25,960 nucleotides of DNA from a virus: UHGV virus genome UHGV-0396296; one strand, given 5' to 3'. Shown here one piece after another: positions 1 to 11,776 of the stretch (positions within the stretch are counted from its first letter, which is position 1; the number at the start of each line of letters is the position of its first letter). A program made the translations under genes and the position numbers. The notes under the pieces were generated by a model. The model made no database searches, was not told the DNA's origin, and worked only from the letters and a program-made list of their open reading frames with translations.

Positions 1-680
1 TTTATGTTTTCGCCATCCACTTTTGCAGATTTTACGTCCATGATGTGCCATTTTCCACGCTCATCTCGTTTCCATTCCGCCAAAACTATGTAACACCCCA
101 ACGCGCCCTTTGCCCTTCCTTCTATACCTGTGGCAACAGCAACTGATTCTTTACCTTCAACCGTTGCTGCGCTCTGGTCGCCGGTGTTTGTTGCTGCGCT
201 CCAGTCGCCGGTGTTTGTCGCTGCGCTCCAGTCGCCGGTGTTTGTCGCTGCGCTCCAGTCGCCGGTGTTTGTCGCTGCGCTCTGGTTGCCGGTGTTTGTC
301 GCTGCGCTCTGGTTGCCGGTGTTTGTCGCTGCGCTCTGGTCGCCGGTGTTATTACTTTTCTCTTTTTTCCAATCCACCCGATTCAGCGTAAATTTTACAA
401 ACGCATCGACTATTCCCTTTATCCCGATTTCGGCGTTGATTTTTATCCGCTTTCCGCAGCGTTTACTATCGCTACTTTCTTCGTCAGCAACATCACTTAG
501 TTCAACCTCACAATATCGGCTATCTGCCGGCGGATAATAATTAAACACATCTATGGGGTTCTCACATGCATGGAAACCGCACTCACATAGTTCTGCACGA
601 TTTTCTTCGTATTCTTTGCCAACCTCATATTGGAAATCACGACACCTCAGGTCTTCATTAAATCCTTTATATGCTTTCAT
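1..680 (-). CDS. Partial CDS (3' end beyond window start): phage protein with conserved N-terminal domain (MKAYKGF...CECGFHACENPIDVFNYY) and 7 tandem nonapeptide repeats TNTGD(W/Q)SAA
   Basis: ATG at 680-678 on the minus strand preceded by GGAGGAAAT, overlapping the upstream stop (ATGA). Hand translation of the minus frame is open from 680 to position 1. Not in the ORF track because it runs off the window. The plus-strand ORFs 110-391 and 130-537 are mirror artefacts of the repeat. Confidence 0.6.
   Translation of the reverse strand, partial: MKAYKGFNEDLRCRDFQYEVGKEYEENRAELCECGFHACENPIDVFNYYPPADSRYCEVELSDVADEESSDSKRCGKRIKINAEIGIKGIVDAFVKFTLNRVDWKKEKSNNTGDQSAATNTGNQSAATNTGNQSAATNTGDWSAATNTGDWSAATNTGDWSAATNTGDQSAATVEGKESVAVATGIEGRAKGALGCYIVLAEWKRDERGKWHIMDVKSAKVDGENI
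165..350. repeat. 27-bp tandem repeat, about 7 copies (gctgcgctc[c/t][a/g]gt[c/t]gccggtgtttgt[c/t]), in frame within the 1-680 CDS
   Basis: Direct reading of the sequence. Unit length is a multiple of 3. Variants change the encoded residue between D/N and W/Q. Confidence 0.9.
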
Positions 681-1320: not shown

Positions 1321-1851
1321 TTAAACCGTTTCATCACTACCTCCTAACGCTTTTGTGGCCGATCCCCGTAGCCTGGCTATCTGCTCTTGCAACTTTGCCG
1401 GCAGTGCCGCAGTCTCGTTTTTTCGCTGTGCCTCCTGTTCATACACCATCCGGAAATTCGCCCTGTCCTGCATCGGGTTTTCAGATTCGCATAGCTGTTT
1501 CCACCCCAGCCGTTTCACCACCTTGCGGGTCGTTTCATCCATGCTGGCCAGTGCCGCCTCCTGCTGGTAGTATCCGTATTTACCAACCGCCTTGCGGAAC
1601 TGTTCCCAGCCGTCCGCCCAGCCTCGCGGAGCTTCTACAGTCTGTACTGCCGCCTGTCGTATCTCTGCCGGTGTTGGCGGGAATTTGTTCGTTGACATGT
1701 GCCGTTGTATGGCTATGTTCGCCAGCTCGTATGGCATATCCTCCAGCAGCCTGTACCAAATTTTTACGCTGTCTGCGTCAGGTAGAAAATTCGGCGATGT
1801 ATATACTGCTTTCATGCCTTTTACCAGCACCTTGAACTCATTAAATGTCAT
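1321..1851 (-). CDS. Helicase loader/inhibitor-like protein (SPP1 G39P-like)
   Basis: 176-aa ORF with the KFPPTPAEI motif and a tyrosine-rich N-terminal region, recalled as the G39P-like loader family. Sits directly after the replisome organiser gene. Confidence 0.5.
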   Translation of the reverse strand: MTFNEFKVLVKGMKAVYTSPNFLPDADSVKIWYRLLEDMPYELANIAIQRHMSTNKFPPTPAEIRQAAVQTVEAPRGWADGWEQFRKAVGKYGYYQQEAALASMDETTRKVVKRLGWKQLCESENPMQDRANFRMVYEQEAQRKNETAALPAKLQEQIARLRGSATKALGGSDETV

Positions 1852-2539
1852 CTATCCAGTCTAACCGTCCAGCCTTCTCCTGCGGCGGCTTCTCCTCCTT
1901 TCTCGCCCATGTAAGGATCGTTGCGTAATGGCTCTTATACCGCTTACCCTTGCTTGCCATGTATTGCGATAATCTTTCAATGCGCTCCTGCCAGTCATAT
2001 GGGAATTGCCTTTGCAGTTTTTCCAGTTCTTCCTCCGTCAGGTGTACGTTCTTAAACTCGCCCATGGCGGGCATAATATATCTCTTTTCTTTTTTGTCTT
2101 TCTTGTCTTTCTTTATATTGGCTCCGTCTGTGGCTCTACTTGTGGCTCCGCCTGTGGCTCTACTTGTGGCTCCGCCTGTGGCTTCACCAGTCTCAGCTTC
2201 ATCTTGGTATCTGCTGTAATTTTCAATGGTTATCACGGTTCCGATGCTGGCTCCGTAGGTGGTACTGTCAAATGTCGCCATTTCCAAATCCTCAAGCAGT
2301 TTACAAAACCTCGCCACTTTACCTCTGCCCCAGCCGAATGTTTCAGCCAGTTTGCGCTGCCCTATTATCAGTTGGCCGGGTTTTAAATGAATCGCCTGCC
2401 CCTTTATTACTTCGGTCTTTTCAAATCGACACGCCTTTACCATCAGCCACTCAAAGGCGTGCCAGCGGTCGAACGGCTTTTCGTCAAACAATTCGTTTTC
2501 GACCACTTTTCGGAACAGCTTTATGTACGTCTCTGCCAC
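1841..2539 (-). CDS. Phage replication initiator / replisome organiser (winged-helix N-terminus, DnaD-like C-terminus)
   Basis: 232-aa ORF. Central linker ATGGATSRATGGATSRAT and a Lys-rich KKDKKDKKEK segment are encoded by internal DNA repeats. C-terminal region resembles DnaD-like replisome organiser domains. Confidence 0.65.
   Translation of the reverse strand: MAETYIKLFRKVVENELFDEKPFDRWHAFEWLMVKACRFEKTEVIKGQAIHLKPGQLIIGQRKLAETFGWGRGKVARFCKLLEDLEMATFDSTTYGASIGTVITIENYSRYQDEAETGEATGGATSRATGGATSRATDGANIKKDKKDKKEKRYIMPAMGEFKNVHLTEEELEKLQRQFPYDWQERIERLSQYMASKGKRYKSHYATILTWARKEEKPPQEKAGRLDWIDDI
2080..2188. repeat. AT-rich tract plus 6 direct 12-bp repeats (TGGCTCYNYCTG): candidate iteron-type origin inside the replication initiator gene
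   Basis: Repeats at 2119-2188, immediately preceded by an A/T-rich run at 2080-2118. Phage origins often lie within the initiator gene. Confidence 0.4.
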
Positions 2540-2872: not shown

Positions 2873-3153
2873 AGGTAGTTCCTCCCAAAAATTCTCATAA
2901 AGTCTTCTCTTGTTCCGTGAACTTTTTCAAACGCCTCTTGCCCTTTTTTATGAAGATATTCCATATTTTCTTTGTTGAAATGAACGCCGTTCGGAGGCTC
3001 ATTATGCCAATAATGATTTAAATAAACCCATAGTCCGTATTTTTCCGACAATTTTCTATTGGCTCCTTGGTATAGATGATGTTTTTCCAACCAGTCTGTT
3101 CTGCCGCTTAAATAGCATACCTTTTCAGACTGCATAATACTCTTTGCCATCAC
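2869..3153 (-). CDS. HNH-like nuclease-motif protein (94 aa)
   Basis: Motifs LEKHHL ... GLWVYLNHYWHNEP resemble the HNH beta-beta-alpha core (HH ... N ... H). The canonical Cys pairs are incomplete. Confidence 0.4.
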   Translation of the reverse strand: MMAKSIMQSEKVCYLSGRTDWLEKHHLYQGANRKLSEKYGLWVYLNHYWHNEPPNGVHFNKENMEYLHKKGQEAFEKVHGTREDFMRIFGRNYL

Positions 3154-3703
3154 CTAACACCTCATTTCTATACGTTATTGCACAATTAAGACTTTCAAAA
3201 GTTTTACATATTTCTAAGCTTTTGATGCATACACGGTACATTCCATTCTTTTGGCGGTGTATGTACTTTTCTCCAGTATTCGTTTTTTTACATTTTGTTT
3301 TTGGCTTGCGCATATGTTTTGCCGAATATTTAATATTCTTTGCCTGTGTTGTAATTTCTAAGTTAGAAGCTTTATTATTTAACGTGTCGTAATCAATATG
3401 GTTAATGACTTTATCTTGACCAACACACCCTAAAAACGCTTCTGCCACCAACCTGTGTACGTAGTGATTTTTTTTCACATATAATCCGTTATATTCACGC
3501 CTAAGCCCCACTATTTTATATCCATTTCCATTATCGGTCGGTGTTAATAACTGCCCCTTAATTCGCCTTTCCATGGATTTTCCCCACTGAGTGTTGTTTT
3601 GAGTTATAATTCTGTCAAGAGACCTAACGTTTCCCAAGTTGCTAACCTGATAAAGTCCTTCATATCCCAGTATATCTCGCCATTCTTCCTCAAGCCTTTT
3701 CAT
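3125..3703 (-). CDS. HNH homing endonuclease with NUMOD4-type N-terminal motif
   Basis: 192-aa ORF. WRDILGYEGLYQVSNLGNVRSL is a NUMOD4-like motif, and HRLVAEAFL...INHIDYDTLNN is HNH_3-like. The gene is visibly more AT-rich than its flanks and overlaps both neighbouring genes. Confidence 0.75.
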   Translation of the reverse strand: MKRLEEEWRDILGYEGLYQVSNLGNVRSLDRIITQNNTQWGKSMERRIKGQLLTPTDNGNGYKIVGLRREYNGLYVKKNHYVHRLVAEAFLGCVGQDKVINHIDYDTLNNKASNLEITTQAKNIKYSAKHMRKPKTKCKKTNTGEKYIHRQKNGMYRVCIKSLEICKTFESLNCAITYRNEVLGDGKEYYAV

Positions 3704-4319
3704 CTGCCTCTCCTTTCAAGTCTGCGTAAACCTCCTTGAATCGTTCCACTGTGGTGTCTTTGCCCAGTTTGTAGTCTTTGGACAGTTCAGATGCCTTTAT
3801 GCCCTTCTCGTTTGCCAGTTCCAGCACCTTGCCCCTCCAAATTTCACGCTCTTTTATATCACTTACAACCTCATCCCGGCTCTTTGCGGCGGCTTTCCGT
3901 CTATCCTCGACACTTCCATCAGCTTCGTCCGGCAAATCCTCCCCTGCGTACACATACAGCCCCAGTCCGTGCCTTGCAACAGCTTTTGTCAGGCTCCTTT
4001 GGATAGCTTTGTTCACGTCAAAGCTGGTTACCATGTCCGCTGGGATGGACTTGTTGCGATAGTCCATTACCGGCAAAAACTCTATATGTTCAATTTCGAA
4101 ATCGTCAGTTACAACAGTTACCCCCGTTTTTACCCAACACGTCTTATTGTCAGAAAAGTAGTTCCACTCCAGATCGTTTTGGTAGACGGTATAATAGCTT
4201 CTCGGGTATCGTTTTTTTAGTTCCTTCCAGGCGTTGGCCCACGACAAATACGATAAATCCTTCTTTTTCTCTATCATGCTCCCGCAGTCAACGCTGTTTA
4301 GTTCCTCAAAATAGTTCAT
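3690..4319 (-). CDS. Putative single-strand annealing protein (Rad52/Sak-like, DUF1071-type), uncertain
   Basis: 209-aa ORF with LSYLSWANAW and HGLGLYVYAGEDLP motifs and an acidic/charged C-terminal tail. Family assignment is from memory only. Confidence 0.4.
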   Translation of the reverse strand: MNYFEELNSVDCGSMIEKKKDLSYLSWANAWKELKKRYPRSYYTVYQNDLEWNYFSDNKTCWVKTGVTVVTDDFEIEHIEFLPVMDYRNKSIPADMVTSFDVNKAIQRSLTKAVARHGLGLYVYAGEDLPDEADGSVEDRRKAAAKSRDEVVSDIKEREIWRGKVLELANEKGIKASELSKDYKLGKDTTVERFKEVYADLKGEADEKA

Positions 4320-5683: not shown

Positions 5684-6346
5684 ATGACCGGATTCAAATG
5701 TCCATATTGTAATTCTGTTTTTCCTTTGACCAGAGATACTCTCCGAGAATGCAAGGCCTATTTCGATCCGCCTAAACCTTACGAAGCTGCTGACAACAGC
5801 GGCATAAATATTTCATTCTACAAATGCCCAAATTGCAACGAATATATAGTGCGTGCTCAAGGCTTTGGTAAACAGGTTCTTGATATAAATTCACAACTGC
5901 GCCCGCTATCTTCCGCAATACAATTCCCTGATTATGTTCCGGAGTCCATACGACAGGACTATAGCGAAGCCTGCGCTATCGTTAATCTCAGTCCTAAAGC
6001 ATCCGCCACTTTATCTCGCAGGTGTCTACAAACTATGATTCGCGACTTCTGGGGCATTACCGAAGCAACGCTTTACAAGGAAATCGAAAGTCTCGACACT
6101 ATTATTCCTTCTACACAGAAAAAAGTACTTCATAGCCTTAGACAAATCGGCAATATCGGTGCCCACCCTGAAGCTGATATCAACACAATCATTGATATCG
6201 AACCCGGCGACGCTGAAAAGCTCATTAAGGTTATCGAGTTCTTTGTTGATAAGTGGTACATCGATCGCCATGAGCAACAGCTTCTGTTTGATGAGATCAA
6301 TAATCTCAACGATGATATGCAGGATAAAAAGAAATCTGATGAGTAG
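5684..6346 (+). CDS. Zinc-ribbon plus DUF4145-domain protein (candidate defence or accessory gene)
   Basis: 220-aa ORF on the opposite strand to the surrounding early operon. N-terminal CPYC...CPNC pairs. C-terminal LHSLRQIGNIGAHPE and SRRCLQTMIRDF match recalled DUF4145 features (lR..GN.gaH). Confidence 0.6.
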   Translation: MTGFKCPYCNSVFPLTRDTLRECKAYFDPPKPYEAADNSGINISFYKCPNCNEYIVRAQGFGKQVLDINSQLRPLSSAIQFPDYVPESIRQDYSEACAIVNLSPKASATLSRRCLQTMIRDFWGITEATLYKEIESLDTIIPSTQKKVLHSLRQIGNIGAHPEADINTIIDIEPGDAEKLIKVIEFFVDKWYIDRHEQQLLFDEINNLNDDMQDKKKSDE

Positions 6347-6368
6347 TGCGCTACTCATTTTCTTTTAT
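6338..6368. terminator. Bidirectional intrinsic terminator (ATGAGTAG-TGCG-CTACTCAT hairpin with flanking T/A runs)
   Basis: Perfect 8-bp stem overlapping the DUF4145 stop, followed by TTTCTTTT on plus and T-rich on minus. Lies between convergent genes. Confidence 0.5.
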
Positions 6369-6569
6369 GAGCATATCCTTCTCAGCAAGCATTTCTCCGT
6401 CTAAGCTCCAATACTGCTTGACACGGCGCACAGGATCTTCCTGGCTACTACCTGAACCTCGCAACGCTATCGTCTCTATCACCTGTATCACTTTTGCGGA
6501 ATCTGTGCCTCTTGGCCTTGCGTGTGCATAATGCTCTTCTTCATTTCCTCTCTCTTTCAAACATTCCAT
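6351..6569 (-). CDS. Hypothetical small protein downstream of cro-like gene (72 aa)
   Basis: Start placed at ATG 6569 (MECLKERG...), 11 nt after AAGGAGG. The track start at 6581 is a GTG too close to the RBS. Confidence 0.4.
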   Translation of the reverse strand: MECLKERGNEEEHYAHARPRGTDSAKVIQVIETIALRGSGSSQEDPVRRVKQYWSLDGEMLAEKDMLIKENE

Positions 6570-6617
6570 TCCTTTTCTCACCTCCTTGTCATGCGACGGC
6601 TTCTGCCACGTTTTGTG

Positions 6618-6821
6618 TCATTGACGAGCAAAAAAAATTTCTTCTACTGACGTACCGTAATATTCTGCAAGTCTTATTTTAATTTCATCACGCGGCACTC
6701 TTTCGCCATTTTCATACATTGACAATGCCGATGGGCTTATACCTGTTGCTCTTGCTACTTCCTCCTGGCTTTTGGCGCCTCGAAGTTTTACAAGTCTTTC
6801 GGATATTACGCTCTTGTCCAT
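6618..6821 (-). CDS. Cro-like XRE-family HTH regulator
   Basis: 67-aa ORF. SQEEVARATGISPSALSMYENGERVP is a canonical XRE HTH. Transcribed divergently from the CI-like gene, towards the replication genes. Confidence 0.7.
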   Translation of the reverse strand: MDKSVISERLVKLRGAKSQEEVARATGISPSALSMYENGERVPRDEIKIRLAEYYGTSVEEIFFARQ

Positions 6822-6847
6822 TGTTCTGCACCTCCTTTCACATCATG

Positions 6848-6925
6848 ATTATATCATTCGCCACAAATCGTGTCAACACATTTTGTGGACTTTTTCTTTA
6901 CTTTTTCCACGAATCGTGTTATTAT
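6848..6925. promoter_or_regulatory. Divergent switch region: consensus leftward promoter (TTGACA-N17-TATAAT on minus), weaker rightward promoter, and three operator-like sites
   Basis: Minus strand -35 at 6871-6876 and -10 at 6848-6853 with a 17-nt spacer. Direct repeats CCACAAATCGTGT (6861-6873) and CCACGAATCGTGT (6907-6919), plus inverted partner ACACATTTTGTGG (6876-6888). Confidence 0.5.
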
Positions 6926-6954
6926 TTGCGTACACCACATATGGAGGGATAGCA

Positions 6955-7266
6955 ATGTCAAAGTTTTCAACGGTTTTTAAAAATTTAAGAATCAATAACG
7001 GATACACGCAACAGGAGCTTGCTAATAGACTTGGCGTTTCACGCAGTGCCGTTGGTATGTATGAAAATGGTGAGCGTGAGCCTGATTTTGAAACGTTAGA
7101 GGCAATAGCTGATTTCTTTAATGTGGACATGGACTATTTAATGGGTAGGAGTAATAAAATCACAACTATCGCCGCCCACCATGAAGGCGAAGAATGGACA
7201 CAGGAAGAACTTGATGAGATAGAAGAGTTTAAGAAATTTGTGAAATCAAAAAGAGATAATAAGTAG
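6955..7266 (+). CDS. CI-like XRE-family HTH repressor
   Basis: ATG 6955 preceded by GGAGGG. YTQQELANRLGVSRSAVGMYENGEREP is an XRE HTH. Followed by an ImmA-like gene. The track ORF start at 6772 is upstream of the promoter region. Confidence 0.7.
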   Translation: MSKFSTVFKNLRINNGYTQQELANRLGVSRSAVGMYENGEREPDFETLEAIADFFNVDMDYLMGRSNKITTIAAHHEGEEWTQEELDEIEEFKKFVKSKRDNK

Positions 7267-7320
7267 TGTCCATACTTTTGGACACTGGGGTCGATATAAT
7301 ACTTTTGGGGAGGTGTTACC

Positions 7321-7704
7321 GTGACGAAGTACGAAGAACTTATGGCAAGATACGACAATCTCCACATCGAGGAACGACCCATGAAAAATGATGGTCTGTA
7401 CGCTGATGATTGTATCTGGATCAATAGGAACATGCCGGAATGCCGCCGGTATTGCACGCTTGCAGAAGAGATCGGACACTATGAGACCAGCGTTGGAGAT
7501 ATATTGGATCAGACCAATACGAATAACCGCCGGCAGGAGCGAGCTGCCCGCAAGTGGGCATACGAGGAAATACTGCCAGTCGAAAATATATTATTCGCCG
7601 CTCAGGATGGACACACTGATATATGGGACATGGCAGAATACTTAGAAGTAGACGAAGCATTTCTAAAGGATGCTTTAAGGCATTATGGGATTTTAGACAT
7701 ATAA
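7321..7704 (+). CDS. ImmA/IrrE-family (M78-like) metallopeptidase homologue with non-canonical EEIGH motif
   Basis: 127-aa ORF, GTG start after GGGGAGG. Pattern IWINRNM...RRYCTLAEEIGHYE...WAYEEILPVE matches ImmA family architecture, but the first His of HExxH is Glu. Confidence 0.6.
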   Translation: MTKYEELMARYDNLHIEERPMKNDGLYADDCIWINRNMPECRRYCTLAEEIGHYETSVGDILDQTNTNNRRQERAARKWAYEEILPVENILFAAQDGHTDIWDMAEYLEVDEAFLKDALRHYGILDI

Positions 7705-7782
7705 TTTATAACGCAACGATGGCGTTCCAGAGCGATATAGTCTAATAAGGGGATAGGGCAAACACATGAAAGGAGAAGTACT

Positions 7783-8262
7783 ATGAGTGAATTTAATGAG
7801 AAACCTAAAAAGAAATTTTATAAGCGTTGGTGGTTTTGGCTAATAGTGGCCGTGGTAGTCATCGGCGTAGGTGGTGCCGCCGGGAGCGGCGGTGATGATC
7901 CTGCCGATACAAAAACAGCGCAAACCGAGCAAACAGAAGAAGCGACAGAGGCAACAGAAGCAACGGAAGCCCTCACGACCGGACAAAGAAATGCTCTCGG
8001 CTCCGCAGAGTCTTACCTTTCCGCTATGCCGTTCTCATATTCAGGGCTAATAGAACAGCTTGAATATGAAGGATACTCAACAGAGGACGCTACTTATGCC
8101 GCTGACAATTGTGGTGCAGATTGGAATGAACAAGCTGCGTTATCCGCAGAGGATTATTTGGATATTATGTCTTTTTCGCGCGACGGGTTAATAGAGCAGT
8201 TGGTATATGAAGGCTTTACGCAGGAACAAGCTGAATATGGTGCATCCGCTGTTGGTTATTAA
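7783..8262 (+). CDS. ltp: Ltp-family surface lipoprotein/membrane protein (superinfection-exclusion type)
   Basis: N-terminal TM segment WWFWLIVAVVVIGVGG, TEATEATEATEA linker, and two tandem Ltp repeats (AESYLSAMPFSYSGLIEQLEYEGYS...DNCGADWNEQA and AEDYLDIMSFSRDGLIEQLVYEGFT). RBS AAAGGAG. Confidence 0.75.
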   Translation: MSEFNEKPKKKFYKRWWFWLIVAVVVIGVGGAAGSGGDDPADTKTAQTEQTEEATEATEATEALTTGQRNALGSAESYLSAMPFSYSGLIEQLEYEGYSTEDATYAADNCGADWNEQAALSAEDYLDIMSFSRDGLIEQLVYEGFTQEQAEYGASAVGY

Positions 8263-8474
8263 GAATAACAAATAATGTAAAGCCATTTAAACGAAAAAAG
8301 GGGTATTGAGATTGTGGGTTGATAGCTTTCTGCAAACGACGTATATGATATTTTTTAACCGCAAATTAGTACTAAATTTCAAGAAAACAGTAATTTTTTT
8401 CTTGAATATATAAGTTTTTGTATATTATGCTAAACATTTTCAGCATTTCAATAACAAAAAAGTAACAATAAACA

Positions 8475-8503
8475 TTGACATTTTAAAGCGCTCAGCGTAT
8501 TAT
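8475..8503 (+). promoter_or_regulatory. Candidate promoter upstream of the Abi gene (TTGACA-N17-TATTAT)
   Basis: Hexamers read directly in an AT-rich intergenic region. Confidence 0.4.
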
Positions 8504-8516
8504 AATATTAACAGAT

Positions 8517-8580
8517 CCCGCTGGGCTTCTAGGATATCTTTGATATCCAAGCAAAAATACAGCGGGCCTTTTGCTTTTTT
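8517..8580 (+). terminator. Terminator-like hairpin in the leader of the Abi gene (outer stem CCCGCTG/CAGCGGG, inner GGATATC-TTT-GATATCC, then TTTTGCTTTTTT)
   Basis: Read directly. Lies between the candidate promoter and ATG 8596. Confidence 0.4.
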
Positions 8581-8595
8581 GGGAGAAACAAAGTA

Positions 8596-9501
8596 ATGGA
8601 TCAAAAACCATACAAAACAATTGATGAACAAGTTGAAATTTTAAAAGACCGCGGGTTAATCATAAGTGATGAGGATTATGCAAAACGGTGTCTTACTCAA
8701 CTCAATTATTATCGTTTAAGTGGCTATACTTTGACATTACGAAAAAATAATAGCTTTTACAAAAACATAACTTTTGAAAACGTAATGGATATATATAACT
8801 TTGATCGTCAACTTAAACTTTATGTGTTAAATTATCTTGAAGACATCGAAATATCGTTGCGTACTCACATAGGTTATATTTTAGGAAGCATGGATTCAGA
8901 CAAACCAGCGTATCTTAATGCTGGTTGCTATATAAGCGATGCTCATTACAACAGAGTCCTTGAAGAACTGAAGGATGCCCTTGCTGACAGTAAAAATGAA
9001 GCCTTTGTAAAGCACCACCAGACAAAATACCGCGGAAGCCTTCCTTCATGGGTAATGGTCGAAACATTATCGTTCGGAGCGCTTTCAAGACTCTTTTCAT
9101 CGCTTAAGCAAGACATAAAATGTGACATCTGTGATGCTTATTATAACCAAATCCGCCCACAAGTTGTTGAAAATCTTCTAGAAGGTTTAGTTGTTCTTCG
9201 TAATATATGCGCTCATCATTCCCGCATATATAATCGAGGCATCCCAAACACACCTAAGATGTCTAAAGTAGATAATGATTTTTTTATAGATAATGGATAT
9301 GAGCGAAATGAAATAGGAAAAAAATTATTCTTCAGACTCGTAATCATAGACCGATTGATAGAGGATGCTAATTTTTTAAGCAAAATGATATCTGATATAG
9401 ATGCATTGTCTTATAAATATCCTTTTGTTCAACTCAGGCATTATGGTTTTAAAGCAGACTGGAAAAACATGGTTTCAGAAATTAATAAACAATATAAATA
9501 A
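8596..9501 (+). CDS. Abortive infection protein, Abi_2 family (AbiD/AbiF-like)
   Basis: 301-aa ORF. KTIDEQVEILKDRGL, LNYYRLSGYTLTLR, HHQ...LPSWVMVETLSFGALSRLF and LRNICAHHSRIYNRG match recalled hallmarks of Abi_2 proteins. The gene and its upstream region are markedly AT-rich. Confidence 0.8.
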   Translation: MDQKPYKTIDEQVEILKDRGLIISDEDYAKRCLTQLNYYRLSGYTLTLRKNNSFYKNITFENVMDIYNFDRQLKLYVLNYLEDIEISLRTHIGYILGSMDSDKPAYLNAGCYISDAHYNRVLEELKDALADSKNEAFVKHHQTKYRGSLPSWVMVETLSFGALSRLFSSLKQDIKCDICDAYYNQIRPQVVENLLEGLVVLRNICAHHSRIYNRGIPNTPKMSKVDNDFFIDNGYERNEIGKKLFFRLVIIDRLIEDANFLSKMISDIDALSYKYPFVQLRHYGFKADWKNMVSEINKQYK

Positions 9502-9692: not shown

Positions 9693-10877
9693 ATGCCAGG
9701 AACGAAACAGAAACGAGGAACAGACAGCTGGACCCTGCACGTCAGAGCCGGCACTGATTTTAGGGGAAAGCCCATAAGATATACCAAAACAGTACACTGC
9801 AAAAGCGAAGCAGCTGCAGACAGGGAACTCGCCCTGTTTTATGCAGATTGCGTAAACGGCCGGGTCAACAGATCTACACCTATAACAGTAGCAGAGCTTG
9901 CCGACCAGTGGTATGAAGAGTACGTACTGCGGCACTTAAAGGTCAGCGCCCGGCGTGGCATAGATCCCGCCATAAAGATGTGGATAAAGCCACTACTTGG
10001 AAATAAGAAGGTTTCTAAAGTACAGCGCCTCGATGTGCAAAAATGGGTAAATTACGTTTCCGATCCGCAGGAGCGTACGAACAAGAGGGGCGAAAAAGTT
10101 ATAAAGCAGCTCTCCCCTAAGACTGTACGAAATTACTACTCTGCGCTTCGCGGTATGTTTGATTTTGCGGTCGATATGGGGATCATCGAGGACACTCCCT
10201 GTAAAAATATCCGTATGCCGAAAAAGGATCATAAAGAGGCCACCTACTTTTCTATAGAGGAAGTAAATGTCCTTCTAGAAGCCCTGAGCGCCTTACAGAG
10301 CGACGAACTGCGCTACAAGGTAGCGATTTACCTCGGGCTGTTTGGCGGCCTCAGGAAAGGTGAAATAATGGGATTAAACAGAGAGGATATTAACTTTGAG
10401 CGAGGCGAAATAGCAATCCGGCGTACAAGGATGATAAAACCGAAGGAAGGCGTCTACGAAGACACGCCCAAGACGGATAAATCCATAAGGACGGTCGCCC
10501 TACCTCCGGAGGTTATGGCAGAGATCCTGTGCCTGATCGCGCAACAAAAGGAGCAGAAACTGCAGCTTCAGAACCAGTACCATGACTCCCCTGCCCTGCT
10601 CCGTAACGACCACGGGGACCCACTGTACCCGCAGGTGCTGCAGAGGTGGTTTACCCGATTCCTGGAGAAAAATGGCTTACCTCACGCTGGCCTGCATTCT
10701 CTAAGACACACACACGCCTCAATGCTCGTATATCTTGGTACGGATAAAATGCAGGTCAGCTCCAGACTGGGTCACTCTCAGCTATCGACTACGCTAAATA
10801 TTTACACGCACTTATTTGAAAACGCCGACAAAAAAATAGCGGAAGATCTGTCATCGAACTTCCTAAAAGCTCGCTAG
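9693..10877 (+). CDS. int: Tyrosine site-specific integrase (phage integrase family)
   Basis: 394-aa ORF. C-terminal catalytic signature LFGGLRKGE...HSLRHTHASMLV...LGHSQLSTTLNIYTHL (R, H-x-x-R, Y). N-terminal SAM-like region. Confidence 0.9.
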   Translation: MPGTKQKRGTDSWTLHVRAGTDFRGKPIRYTKTVHCKSEAAADRELALFYADCVNGRVNRSTPITVAELADQWYEEYVLRHLKVSARRGIDPAIKMWIKPLLGNKKVSKVQRLDVQKWVNYVSDPQERTNKRGEKVIKQLSPKTVRNYYSALRGMFDFAVDMGIIEDTPCKNIRMPKKDHKEATYFSIEEVNVLLEALSALQSDELRYKVAIYLGLFGGLRKGEIMGLNREDINFERGEIAIRRTRMIKPKEGVYEDTPKTDKSIRTVALPPEVMAEILCLIAQQKEQKLQLQNQYHDSPALLRNDHGDPLYPQVLQRWFTRFLEKNGLPHAGLHSLRHTHASMLVYLGTDKMQVSSRLGHSQLSTTLNIYTHLFENADKKIAEDLSSNFLKAR

Positions 10878-11422: not shown

Positions 11423-11464
11423 TGTGTTTTTATATATTATTTTATATTTTTTATACTTTTTCGT

Positions 11465-11683
11465 TTATATTATAGGCTCGCCCGTTTCTTTGTCGATGAA
11501 TTGTATTCTCAGCTCTGCGTCGAATGCCTCCGCAATTTTTTCCAATTCAGACACCTTAAACGTGTTCCGTTTGTATTTATTGTTTAAATTCTGCGGCGTT
11601 TGTCCTGTACGCCGAGCAAGTTCCGCTTCCGACATATTTCCTCTTTTAACCCTACACAGATTTATATATTCTCTGACATTCAT
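11465..11683 (-). CDS. XRE-family HTH regulator (72 aa)
   Basis: MSEAELARRTGQTPQNLNNKYKRNTF is an HTH. GGAGGT RBS 6 nt before the ATG. Confidence 0.6.
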   Translation of the reverse strand: MNVREYINLCRVKRGNMSEAELARRTGQTPQNLNNKYKRNTFKVSELEKIAEAFDAELRIQFIDKETGEPII

Positions 11684-11706
11684 ATGCTGACCTCCTTCCT
11701 CTTTTG

Positions 11707-11735
11707 ATTATACACTATATTTTATAATATGTCAA
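11707..11735 (-). promoter_or_regulatory. Consensus promoter TTGACA-N17-TATAAT driving the HTH gene
   Basis: Minus strand -35 at 11730-11735 and -10 at 11707-11712. Confidence 0.5.
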
Positions 11736-11776
11736 AAAAAGAATTTAAATAATATAAAATATTTTATAAAAAACCG

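Follow-up and report, generated by a model that had tools for sequence, protein, structure and literature searches.

Probable replication origin within an initiator gene

In the virus genome UHGV-0396296, of which the 25,960 nucleotides analyzed here are referred to as the window, the middle of a gene for a predicted replication initiator is occupied by an array of short tandem repeats and an A/T-rich tract. The question raised by this locus is whether these nucleotides act as DNA, in the manner of a replication origin, or serve only to encode a flexible part of the protein. An earlier reading of the same DNA (the original prediction), made without database searches, had named the segment as the most likely origin. 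Homology of the initiator to G38P of bacteriophage SPP1, a G39P-like helicase loader gene downstream, a layout like that of SPP1, and a survey of homologous genes all lend support to this view. We consider it highly probable that positions 2073 to 2262 constitute the origin of theta-type replication in a temperate siphovirus, located inside its own initiator gene and built like SPP1 oriL. This assignment combines the homology to SPP1 with phased repeats found across the family, synonymous constraint, modularity, covariation between initiator tail and loader, a linker predicted by AlphaFold2, and the uniqueness of the repeat motif. The features concerned are collected in Table 1.

Table 1. Features of the putative origin region and the two replication genes that surround it (pLDDT, predicted local distance difference test of the AlphaFold2 model; aa, amino acids)
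Feature	Position (nt)	Strand	Remarks
Replication initiator (replisome organizer) gene	1841-2539	-	232 aa; GTG start, immediately preceded by the upstream gene's stop codon
N-terminal winged-helix domain	2192-2539	-	aa 1-116; pLDDT above 90
Disordered linker	2057-2191	-	aa 117-161; pLDDT about 30
C-terminal three-helix domain and tail	1841-2056	-	three-helix part aa 169-216; pLDDT about 80
Iteron array	2119-2190		six 12-bp units, equal to 2.7 copies of a 24-bp unit; last unit degenerate
A/T-rich tract, presumed DNA unwinding element	2073-2118		~77% A+T; encodes IKKDKKDKKEKRY
Outlying iteron-like copy TGGCTCCGTAGGTGG	2248-2262		15 nt, of which 13 match the first unit of the array; distance to the array, 58 nt
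G39P-like helicase loader gene	1321-1851	-	176 aa; 11-nt overlap with the 3' end of the initiator gene

Homology of the initiator and its loader to SPP1 proteins

The classification of the protein as an initiator of the replisome organizer type agrees with its matches to PHROGs 2514, 186, and 13246, which include PHROG 2514 ("DnaD-like helicase loader," aa 3 to 153, E value of 1e-23) and phrog_13246 ("replisome organizer," aa 149 to 214). It also agrees with the homology of its N-terminal domain to G38P, for which comparison with the family profile gives an hhalign probability of 99.4% and an E value of 6.4e-22 (aa 1 to 116 against 1 to 118). The name comes from PHROGs only, as scans of Pfam and NCBIfam gave no match, in the case of Pfam not even at an E value of 5. 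Fold matches, among them the RepA_N N-terminal domain structures 4pql, 4pt7, and 4pta, point to a winged-helix fold for the N-terminal domain; a PDB sequence search with the family profile returned only marginal GntR/FadR winged-helix matches. In the AlphaFold2 model, built from a 38-sequence alignment, the segment predicted to be disordered (aa 117 to 161) coincides exactly with the part encoded by the repeats and the A/T tract, consistent with the earlier proposal that the repeat doubles as a protein linker.

The gene that follows the initiator matches PF11417 at 23.1 bits (cutoff of 22) and phrog_2289 ("helicase loader"), and its product is 36% identical to SPP1 G39P over 67 aa in BLASTP (E value of 4e-7). 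It is followed by genes for a 79-aa protein of unknown function, a PDDEXK/RusA-like resolvase, and a DUF7666 protein.

The comparison with SPP1 is informative as its oriL lies within gene 38 and combines AB-box iterons, bound by G38P, with an AT-rich unwinding element (PMC5737612, PMC6316719, PMC3561973). In vitro, a fragment of 356 bp is both required and sufficient for theta replication (PMC5737612, PMC6316719). The repeat script used for the window was also applied to SPP1 gene 38 and to lambda as positive controls. In gene 38 it recovered an array of GAAA(A/C)GACAC with an 11-nt period at gene nt ~355 to 405, an A-rich A/T tract at nt 420, and, 69 nt upstream, a further copy in the codons that immediately precede the conserved I-x-N-Y-x-x-[YW]-Q motif. 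The corresponding elements in the window initiator gene are an array at gene nt 356 to 415, an A/T tract at nt 419, and likewise an extra copy upstream. The N-terminal domain and loader are homologous between the two phages, gene order is the same, and in both the proven or putative origin falls within the initiator gene. There are also differences. The window iterons have a CC-AC core and a 12-nt period that stays in frame, the C-terminal domain gives no PF09524 score, no G40P-type gene follows the loader, and no oriR-like site is seen in the window. In addition, the window phage is temperate and associated with gut Clostridia, whereas SPP1 is a lytic Bacillus phage.

A single iteron array beside an A/T-rich tract

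The repeats are present inside the initiator coding sequence, as had been described, but their organization differs from that first given. Six direct 12-bp units can indeed be seen, with starts in direct reading at 2119, 2131, 2143, 2155, 2167, and 2179, but two 12-mers alternate and the sixth unit (TGGCTTCACCAG) is degenerate, so that the array is better described as 2.7 copies of a 24-bp unit. At 2119 to 2183, Tandem Repeats Finder accordingly scores a period of 24 (2.7 copies, 97% matches, score of 123, unit TGGCTCCGCCTGTGGCTCTACTTG) above a period of 12 (5.4 copies, 75% matches). The consensus of the original prediction, TGGCTCYNYCTG, fits units 1, 3, and 5, whereas units 2 and 4 represent the alternate half of the 24-bp unit. 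A repeat search found five in-register copies with 12-nt spacing from 2119 and reported no inverted repeat within the array, the units being direct repeats without dyad symmetry. The coding-strand sequence of the array is GCC ACA GGC GGA / GCC ACA AGT AGA, repeated, with GCC ACA GAC GGA GCC AAT at its end. The pattern per unit is thus RCC-ACN-RRY-RRR, with CC-AC (GTGG on the plus strand) as its conserved core.

The array stands alone in the window. It is the sole case of a chain of at least four phased 9-mers in 26 kb, and as 60 sequences simulated with a Markov-1 model reached a maximum of three phased copies, it lies far beyond chance. The word GAGCCACA occurs four times in the window (expected, 0.55), each time within the array.

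The 40-bp A/T-rich run reported next to the repeats is real, and the array abuts the tract directly. A+T content is 77.5% at 2073 to 2112 and 76.9% at 2080 to 2118, compared with a window mean of 53.8%, which places the tract within the top 2% of 40-nt windows. Its coding strand is 87% purine and, directly after the array, reads ATA AAG AAA GAC AAG AAA GAC AAA AAA GAA AAG AGA; Tandem Repeats Finder detects here a T-rich 9-bp subrepeat, TCTTGTCTT, in 3.4 copies at 2083 to 2113. Array and tract together encode EATGGATSRATGGATSRATDGAN and IKKDKKDKKEKR. The A-run (GAC AAA AAA GAA) was also considered as a site of -1 frameshifting, but this was rejected because the A_AAA_AAG heptamer does not fall in register with the frame.

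The location originally given for the array holds, but iteron-like sequence extends beyond it, with a further copy at 2248 to 2262. This copy falls in the DNA for a variable segment of the N-terminal domain (TTYGAS, aa 93 to 98), between two predicted beta-strands. In homologues with other motifs, extra copies cluster 60 to 100 nt upstream of their arrays. One or two such copies are seen in the window (2236 to 2263) and at the same position in loci L007, L009, L012, L096, and L098 to L100 and in SPP1 gene 38 (L102:7871-7879), where they lie in DNA for a variable, indel-prone segment between the last two predicted beta-strands of the DNA-binding domain. Each lineage has its own motif at this site, and the protein sequence there therefore appears to follow the iteron sequence.

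The SPP1 comparison also brings in an alternative, namely, that the initiator binds the array but that the array is an autoregulatory or titration site, or one of two origins, with the main site elsewhere and possibly outside the window. Two G38P-binding regions, oriL and oriR, are known in SPP1 (PMC6316719, PMC3561973), the window is an incomplete genome, and it contains less stable A/T-rich regions at 11431 to 11770. Nevertheless, we regard this alternative as unlikely, since no second array or motif cluster is found in the 26-kb window of this incomplete genome, and the A/T-rich region at 11.4 to 11.8 kb is not part of the replication module and lacks any iteron motif. Moreover, theta replication of SPP1 begins at oriL, the intragenic site (PMC5737612), and the A/T tract adjoining the array is conserved family-wide.

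DNA stability in the window is lowest at 11428 to 11770 (40-nt dG of about -37 kcal/mol), a region that includes 3.7 copies of the repeat TTTTTTATA at 11428 to 11461. This region is situated between the integrase gene (9693 to 10877) and the lysis genes and could be a phage attachment site (attP) or a regulatory region.

Phased repeats in homologous initiator genes

A protein search returned 1,344 homologues of the initiator, and DNA was compared for 13 contigs of close and mosaic relatives, 80 genomic loci, and 7 IMG/VR loci. This gave 91 distinct initiator genes, which were set against 274 control open reading frames (ORFs) of similar length from the same loci. At least three phased copies of a repeat are present in 75 of the 91 initiator genes versus 6 of the 274 control ORFs, and at least four in 45 initiator genes versus none of the controls. 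Spacings cluster at 11 nt (60 cases), 12 nt (52 cases), and 22 to 24 nt (32 cases). Among 32 arrays with at least four copies, 21 contain a spacing that is not a multiple of 3, so that one DNA word is translated in more than one frame. This is exemplified by L099, in which GATAACCAACA recurs with an 11-nt period and encodes first DNQQ and then ITNN. As 11-nt periods put the copies in different reading frames, they cannot be protein repeats. The A/T tract follows the arrays with similar regularity: the A/T-richest 36-nt window of the gene starts at a median of 11 nt after the array and, in 41 of 60 genes, between -15 and +60 nt. Taken together, the comparison supports the interpretation of the repeats as a feature that acts at the DNA level across some 90 homologues.

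Exact 11-nt arrays that pass through all three frames of the linker are found at nt ~330 to 430 in L005, L006, L012, L017, L040, L051, L068, L069, L071, L075, L081, and L099. Phasing of 11 to 12 nt is close to one helical turn, and other lineages show spacings of 12 nt or of 22 to 23 nt.

A nucleotide search of GenBank phages gave no relative of the replication module; at the protein level, tblastn detected only separate matches to the N- or C-terminal domain, and IMG/VR yielded only distant relatives.

Synonymous constraint within the lineage of the window

Additional insight is gained from nine sequences of the same lineage (50 to 95% protein identity), in which the first codon of every 12-nt unit specifies Ala, Thr, or Ser. 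This codon ends in C in 55 of 55 units, compared with 27% of codons of these families in the remainder of the genes. Variation is seen around this C, at the first base of the same codon, at the third base of the second codon, and in the third and fourth codons of the unit. A synonymous position that is invariant among varying neighbors implies a word, CC-AC, that is constrained at the DNA level.

Unit number also differs between relatives, a comparison that the original prediction had put forward as a check, and ranges from four (P0008/L092) to eight (L008). Conservation is lowest in the array: in relatives that are 93 to 95% identical, its poorest 30-nt bin shows 70 to 73% identity, versus 96 to 100% for the rest of the gene. 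Comparison with L088 and L089 places the most variable 30 nt among relatives of 93 to 100% identity in the promoter-proximal part of the array, at 2160 to 2189. Where L088 and L089 have more diverged units, the window has a perfect 24-nt duplication, which looks like a recent slippage or conversion event and suggests that slippage or gene conversion is ongoing within the putative origin. Only the core and the phasing are kept across close relatives.

These observations bear on a second alternative, in which the repeat is a low-complexity flexible linker and nothing else, shaped by replication slippage without a role of the DNA in cis, and the lysine-rich part is a basic linker. The predicted disorder of the segment, the in-frame array of the window, the recent 24-nt duplication, and the variability in sequence and unit number would all be expected for such a linker. 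It would not account for the synonymous C, which persists although the encoded residue shifts among Ala, Thr, and Ser, nor for the 11-nt periods of the homologues and the strong enrichment of arrays over control ORFs. In addition, the homologous segment of SPP1 holds a proven origin (PMC5737612), and in pSK41 and lambda the protein can do without at least part of the corresponding linker, whereas the DNA must be present in cis (PMC5703833, PMC6022878). We therefore judge a linker without function as DNA to be improbable, even more so than a principal origin elsewhere, and retain the assignment of the segment as an origin that also encodes a linker.

Exchange of modules between initiators

Mosaic relatives allow the parts of the locus to be assigned to separate modules. 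In L098 and L099, DNA downstream of ~2100, through the C-terminal domain and the loader, is 80 to 100% identical to the window, whereas upstream of this point the N-terminal domains are unrelated and the repeats different, with the junction in the A/T tract. L097 and L008 present the converse case, in which the N-terminal domain and the CC-AC core are kept and the C-terminal domain differs. L093 diverges only from ~1860 onward, where it has another C-terminal tail and a DnaC/IstB-type loader. A further relative with the same type of N-terminal domain, P0041, carries PF09524 (E value of 6e-28), which the window protein lacks, and the C-terminal domain can thus be regarded as an exchangeable module.

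The same conclusion is reached for the repeats from pairwise comparison. Repeated 7-mers of the arrays are common to 54% of pairs similar in both the N- and C-terminal domains and to 9% of pairs similar in the N-terminal domain only, against 0.6% for the C-terminal domain only and 0.7% for neither, by a measure so strict that it missed the short CC-AC core common to L008, L097, and the window group. At the other end of the protein, the last ~8 residues covary with the type of loader, independently of the N-terminal domain. A tail of the LDWIDDI type (...GRLDWIDDI) is paired with a G39P-like loader at nine of nine loci, and the tail KLCTEYPE is paired with a DnaC/IstB-like loader at all 18 loci with a downstream match. 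This covariation makes the tail a candidate loader-docking peptide. It follows that the array belongs to the module of the N-terminal domain and the tail to that of the loader, which is the behavior expected of a replisome organizer.

The junctions of L098 and L099 inside the A/T tract, at ~2100, could also be taken to mean that repeat and tract are mainly a recombination hot spot, at which phages exchange N- and C-terminal halves, but this is very improbable, as it would leave the N-domain-specific phased iterons, the synonymous constraint, and the homology to SPP1 unexplained, and a hot spot is in any case compatible with an origin and more likely a consequence of one.

Proposed function of the putative origin

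When the origin assignment is placed into the context of SPP1, a sequence of events can be hypothesized. The N-terminal domain (aa 1 to 116) would bind the phased 12-bp iterons at 2119 to 2190 through their CC-AC core, with the copy at 2248 to 2262 probably bound as well, and the resulting oligomeric nucleoprotein complex would then destabilize the adjoining tract at 2073 to 2118, with its 77% A+T and purine/pyrimidine asymmetry. The C-terminal helical domain and the ...GRLDWIDDI tail may recruit the G39P-like loader, which could in turn deliver the replicative helicase to the opened DNA. As no phage helicase gene was found among the selected window ORFs, the helicase delivered is probably that of the host. 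Read in frame, the same nucleotides would provide a disordered linker, rich first in Thr, Ser, Gly, and Ala and then in Lys, between the two domains.

Several points weigh against this interpretation. Protein binding, unwinding, helicase loading, and origin activity are each deduced from sequence and from analogy with related systems. The initiator has no Pfam match, including to PF09524 (Phg_2220_C), the family that defines the C-terminal domain of G38P. Among the selected window ORFs that were scanned, no gene for a DnaB-type helicase, such as G40P in SPP1, follows the loader; in the relatives L088 to L099, similarly, no helicase gene adjoins it. The array of the window itself has a 12-nt period and stays in frame, and the argument from frame shifting applies to it by homology only. 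Its conserved core is short (~5 bp), and it is in the array that near-identical relatives vary most. The Fisher P value of 3e-26 for the synonymous C overstates the independence of 55 units that are related by descent and duplication, although the contrast with neighboring positions is still clear. Ranked by instability, the A/T tract comes only about 13th in the window, and less stable tracts are found at 11.4 to 11.8 kb. Finally, in a contig of ~26 kb from an incomplete genome, a second or principal origin may lie elsewhere.

Comparison with known intragenic origins

The design proposed here is already well known, from SPP1 oriL, lambda ori (PMC7466680, PMC6022878), pSK41 rep (PMC5703833), and TP901-1 and Tuc2009 (PMC8965321). 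In lambda O, the N-terminal domain binds the iterons, the C-terminal domain binds the loader P, and the origin encodes a flexible linker, so that iteron number alters protein length (PMC7466680, PMC6022878). The window resembles lambda in the position of the putative origin, mid-gene in the segment that encodes the linker, and in the order of iterons followed on the C-terminal side by a purine-rich A/T tract (PMC7466680). There is no sequence homology, as the window initiator has no Pfam match to the phage O family, and the lambda iterons are 18 to 19 bp long with dyad symmetry, spaced by 20 to 24 bp, and bound by dimers, in contrast to the 12-bp direct repeats of the window. The same script recovered the lambda iterons at spacings of 23 to 44 nt, together with an A/T tract.

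A second parallel is found in RepA_N plasmids of Firmicutes. The Rep protein of pSK41 binds, by a winged-helix N-terminal domain, Rep boxes that are central in rep, and its central segment is a dispensable linker (PMC5703833). The C-terminal domain of RepA_N proteins is host or partner specific, and joint exchange of N-terminal domain and origin is documented (pPR9) (PMC5703833). The window initiator likewise has a central linker, encoded by the putative origin, and RepA_N structures are among the fold matches of its N-terminal domain, but it has no Pfam match to the RepA_N domain (PF06970).

The replisome organizers of lactococcal P335 phages, TP901-1 ORF13 and Tuc2009 Rep2009, likewise bind direct repeats in their own genes, and these repeats serve as origin (PMC8965321). 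The rep gene of TP901-1 has a tandem pair of TTTCCAGATGTGG followed by an A/T-rich tract, as in the window. ORF13 has no detectable homology to the window initiator (hhalign probability of 0.7%), and its repeats are organized differently. The known repeats of TP901-1 were not the top cluster of the 9-mer script, and the method is thus not universal.

Implications of the family-wide pattern

The analysis locates a probable origin and an initiator/loader pair for an uncultivated temperate phage of gut Clostridia. It also indicates that the design of SPP1 oriL is widespread and modular, comprising an N-terminal domain, cognate iterons, an A/T tract that serves as linker, and a tail matched to the loader. 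Such a pattern could be of use in the annotation of origins in metagenomic phages, in defining groups of replication incompatibility or specificity, and in the design of shuttle replicons, and it allows a "low-complexity linker" to be recognized as being under selection at the DNA rather than the protein level. The current understanding of phage replication is not changed by these results. In the literature covered, from which the primary SPP1 papers were left out, we found no description of 11- to 12-nt phasing across frames, of the upstream copies, or of tail-loader covariation, and novelty is not claimed for them; these family-wide regularities may be valuable beyond this locus.

With a good deal less confidence than for the origin itself, it could be speculated that G38P-like initiator genes form a large natural library of self-labeled pairs of winged-helix domain and binding site. 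Each gene would carry iterons phased at 11 to 12 nt across all three frames of the linker and a conserved second element, of one or two copies, 60 to 100 nt upstream in the DNA of the variable segment. If so, the needs of the DNA site would dictate part of the amino acid sequence of the initiator, including the variable segment, and mining thousands of such genes from metagenomes could reveal a protein-DNA recognition code and groups of origin incompatibility.

Genomic context of the window

The window derives from a temperate siphovirus, as seen from genes for an integrase, an endolysin, and a tape measure protein and from Abi and Ltp cargo genes, and its closest genomic relatives are prophages of gut Clostridia in Brotomerdimonas, Gallibacter, and Emergencia.

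At the start of the window, a second tandem repeat, of 27 bp (6.9 copies, 95% identity), lies at 166 to 350 in a DUF7666-family gene (3 to 680, minus strand, running off the window start; PF24703, E value of 3e-34). It was considered as an alternative iteron array and rejected, as it encodes a 9-aa repeat, NTGD(Q/W)SAAT, of the DUF7666 protein, is not bordered by an A/T tract, and has no motif in common with the array of the initiator gene. Relatives have DUF7666 genes at the same position.

Within the replication and recombination module, an HNH/NUMOD4 homing-endonuclease gene (3125 to 3703, minus strand) has a G+C content of 31 to 35%, versus 45 to 55% around it. The gene is present in the window and L089 and absent from L088 and L093, and it looks like a mobile insertion. 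The single-strand annealing protein (3690 to 4319, minus strand) is swapped among close relatives, being of the Sak type in the window and L093 and of the ERF type in L088, L089, L097, and L099.

Cargo genes on the lysogeny side occupy 5684 to 9501 on the plus strand. They encode a DUF4145 protein (5684 to 6346), an Ltp-type surface lipoprotein of a superinfection-exclusion family (7783 to 8262), and an Abi_2 abortive-infection-like protein (8596 to 9501).

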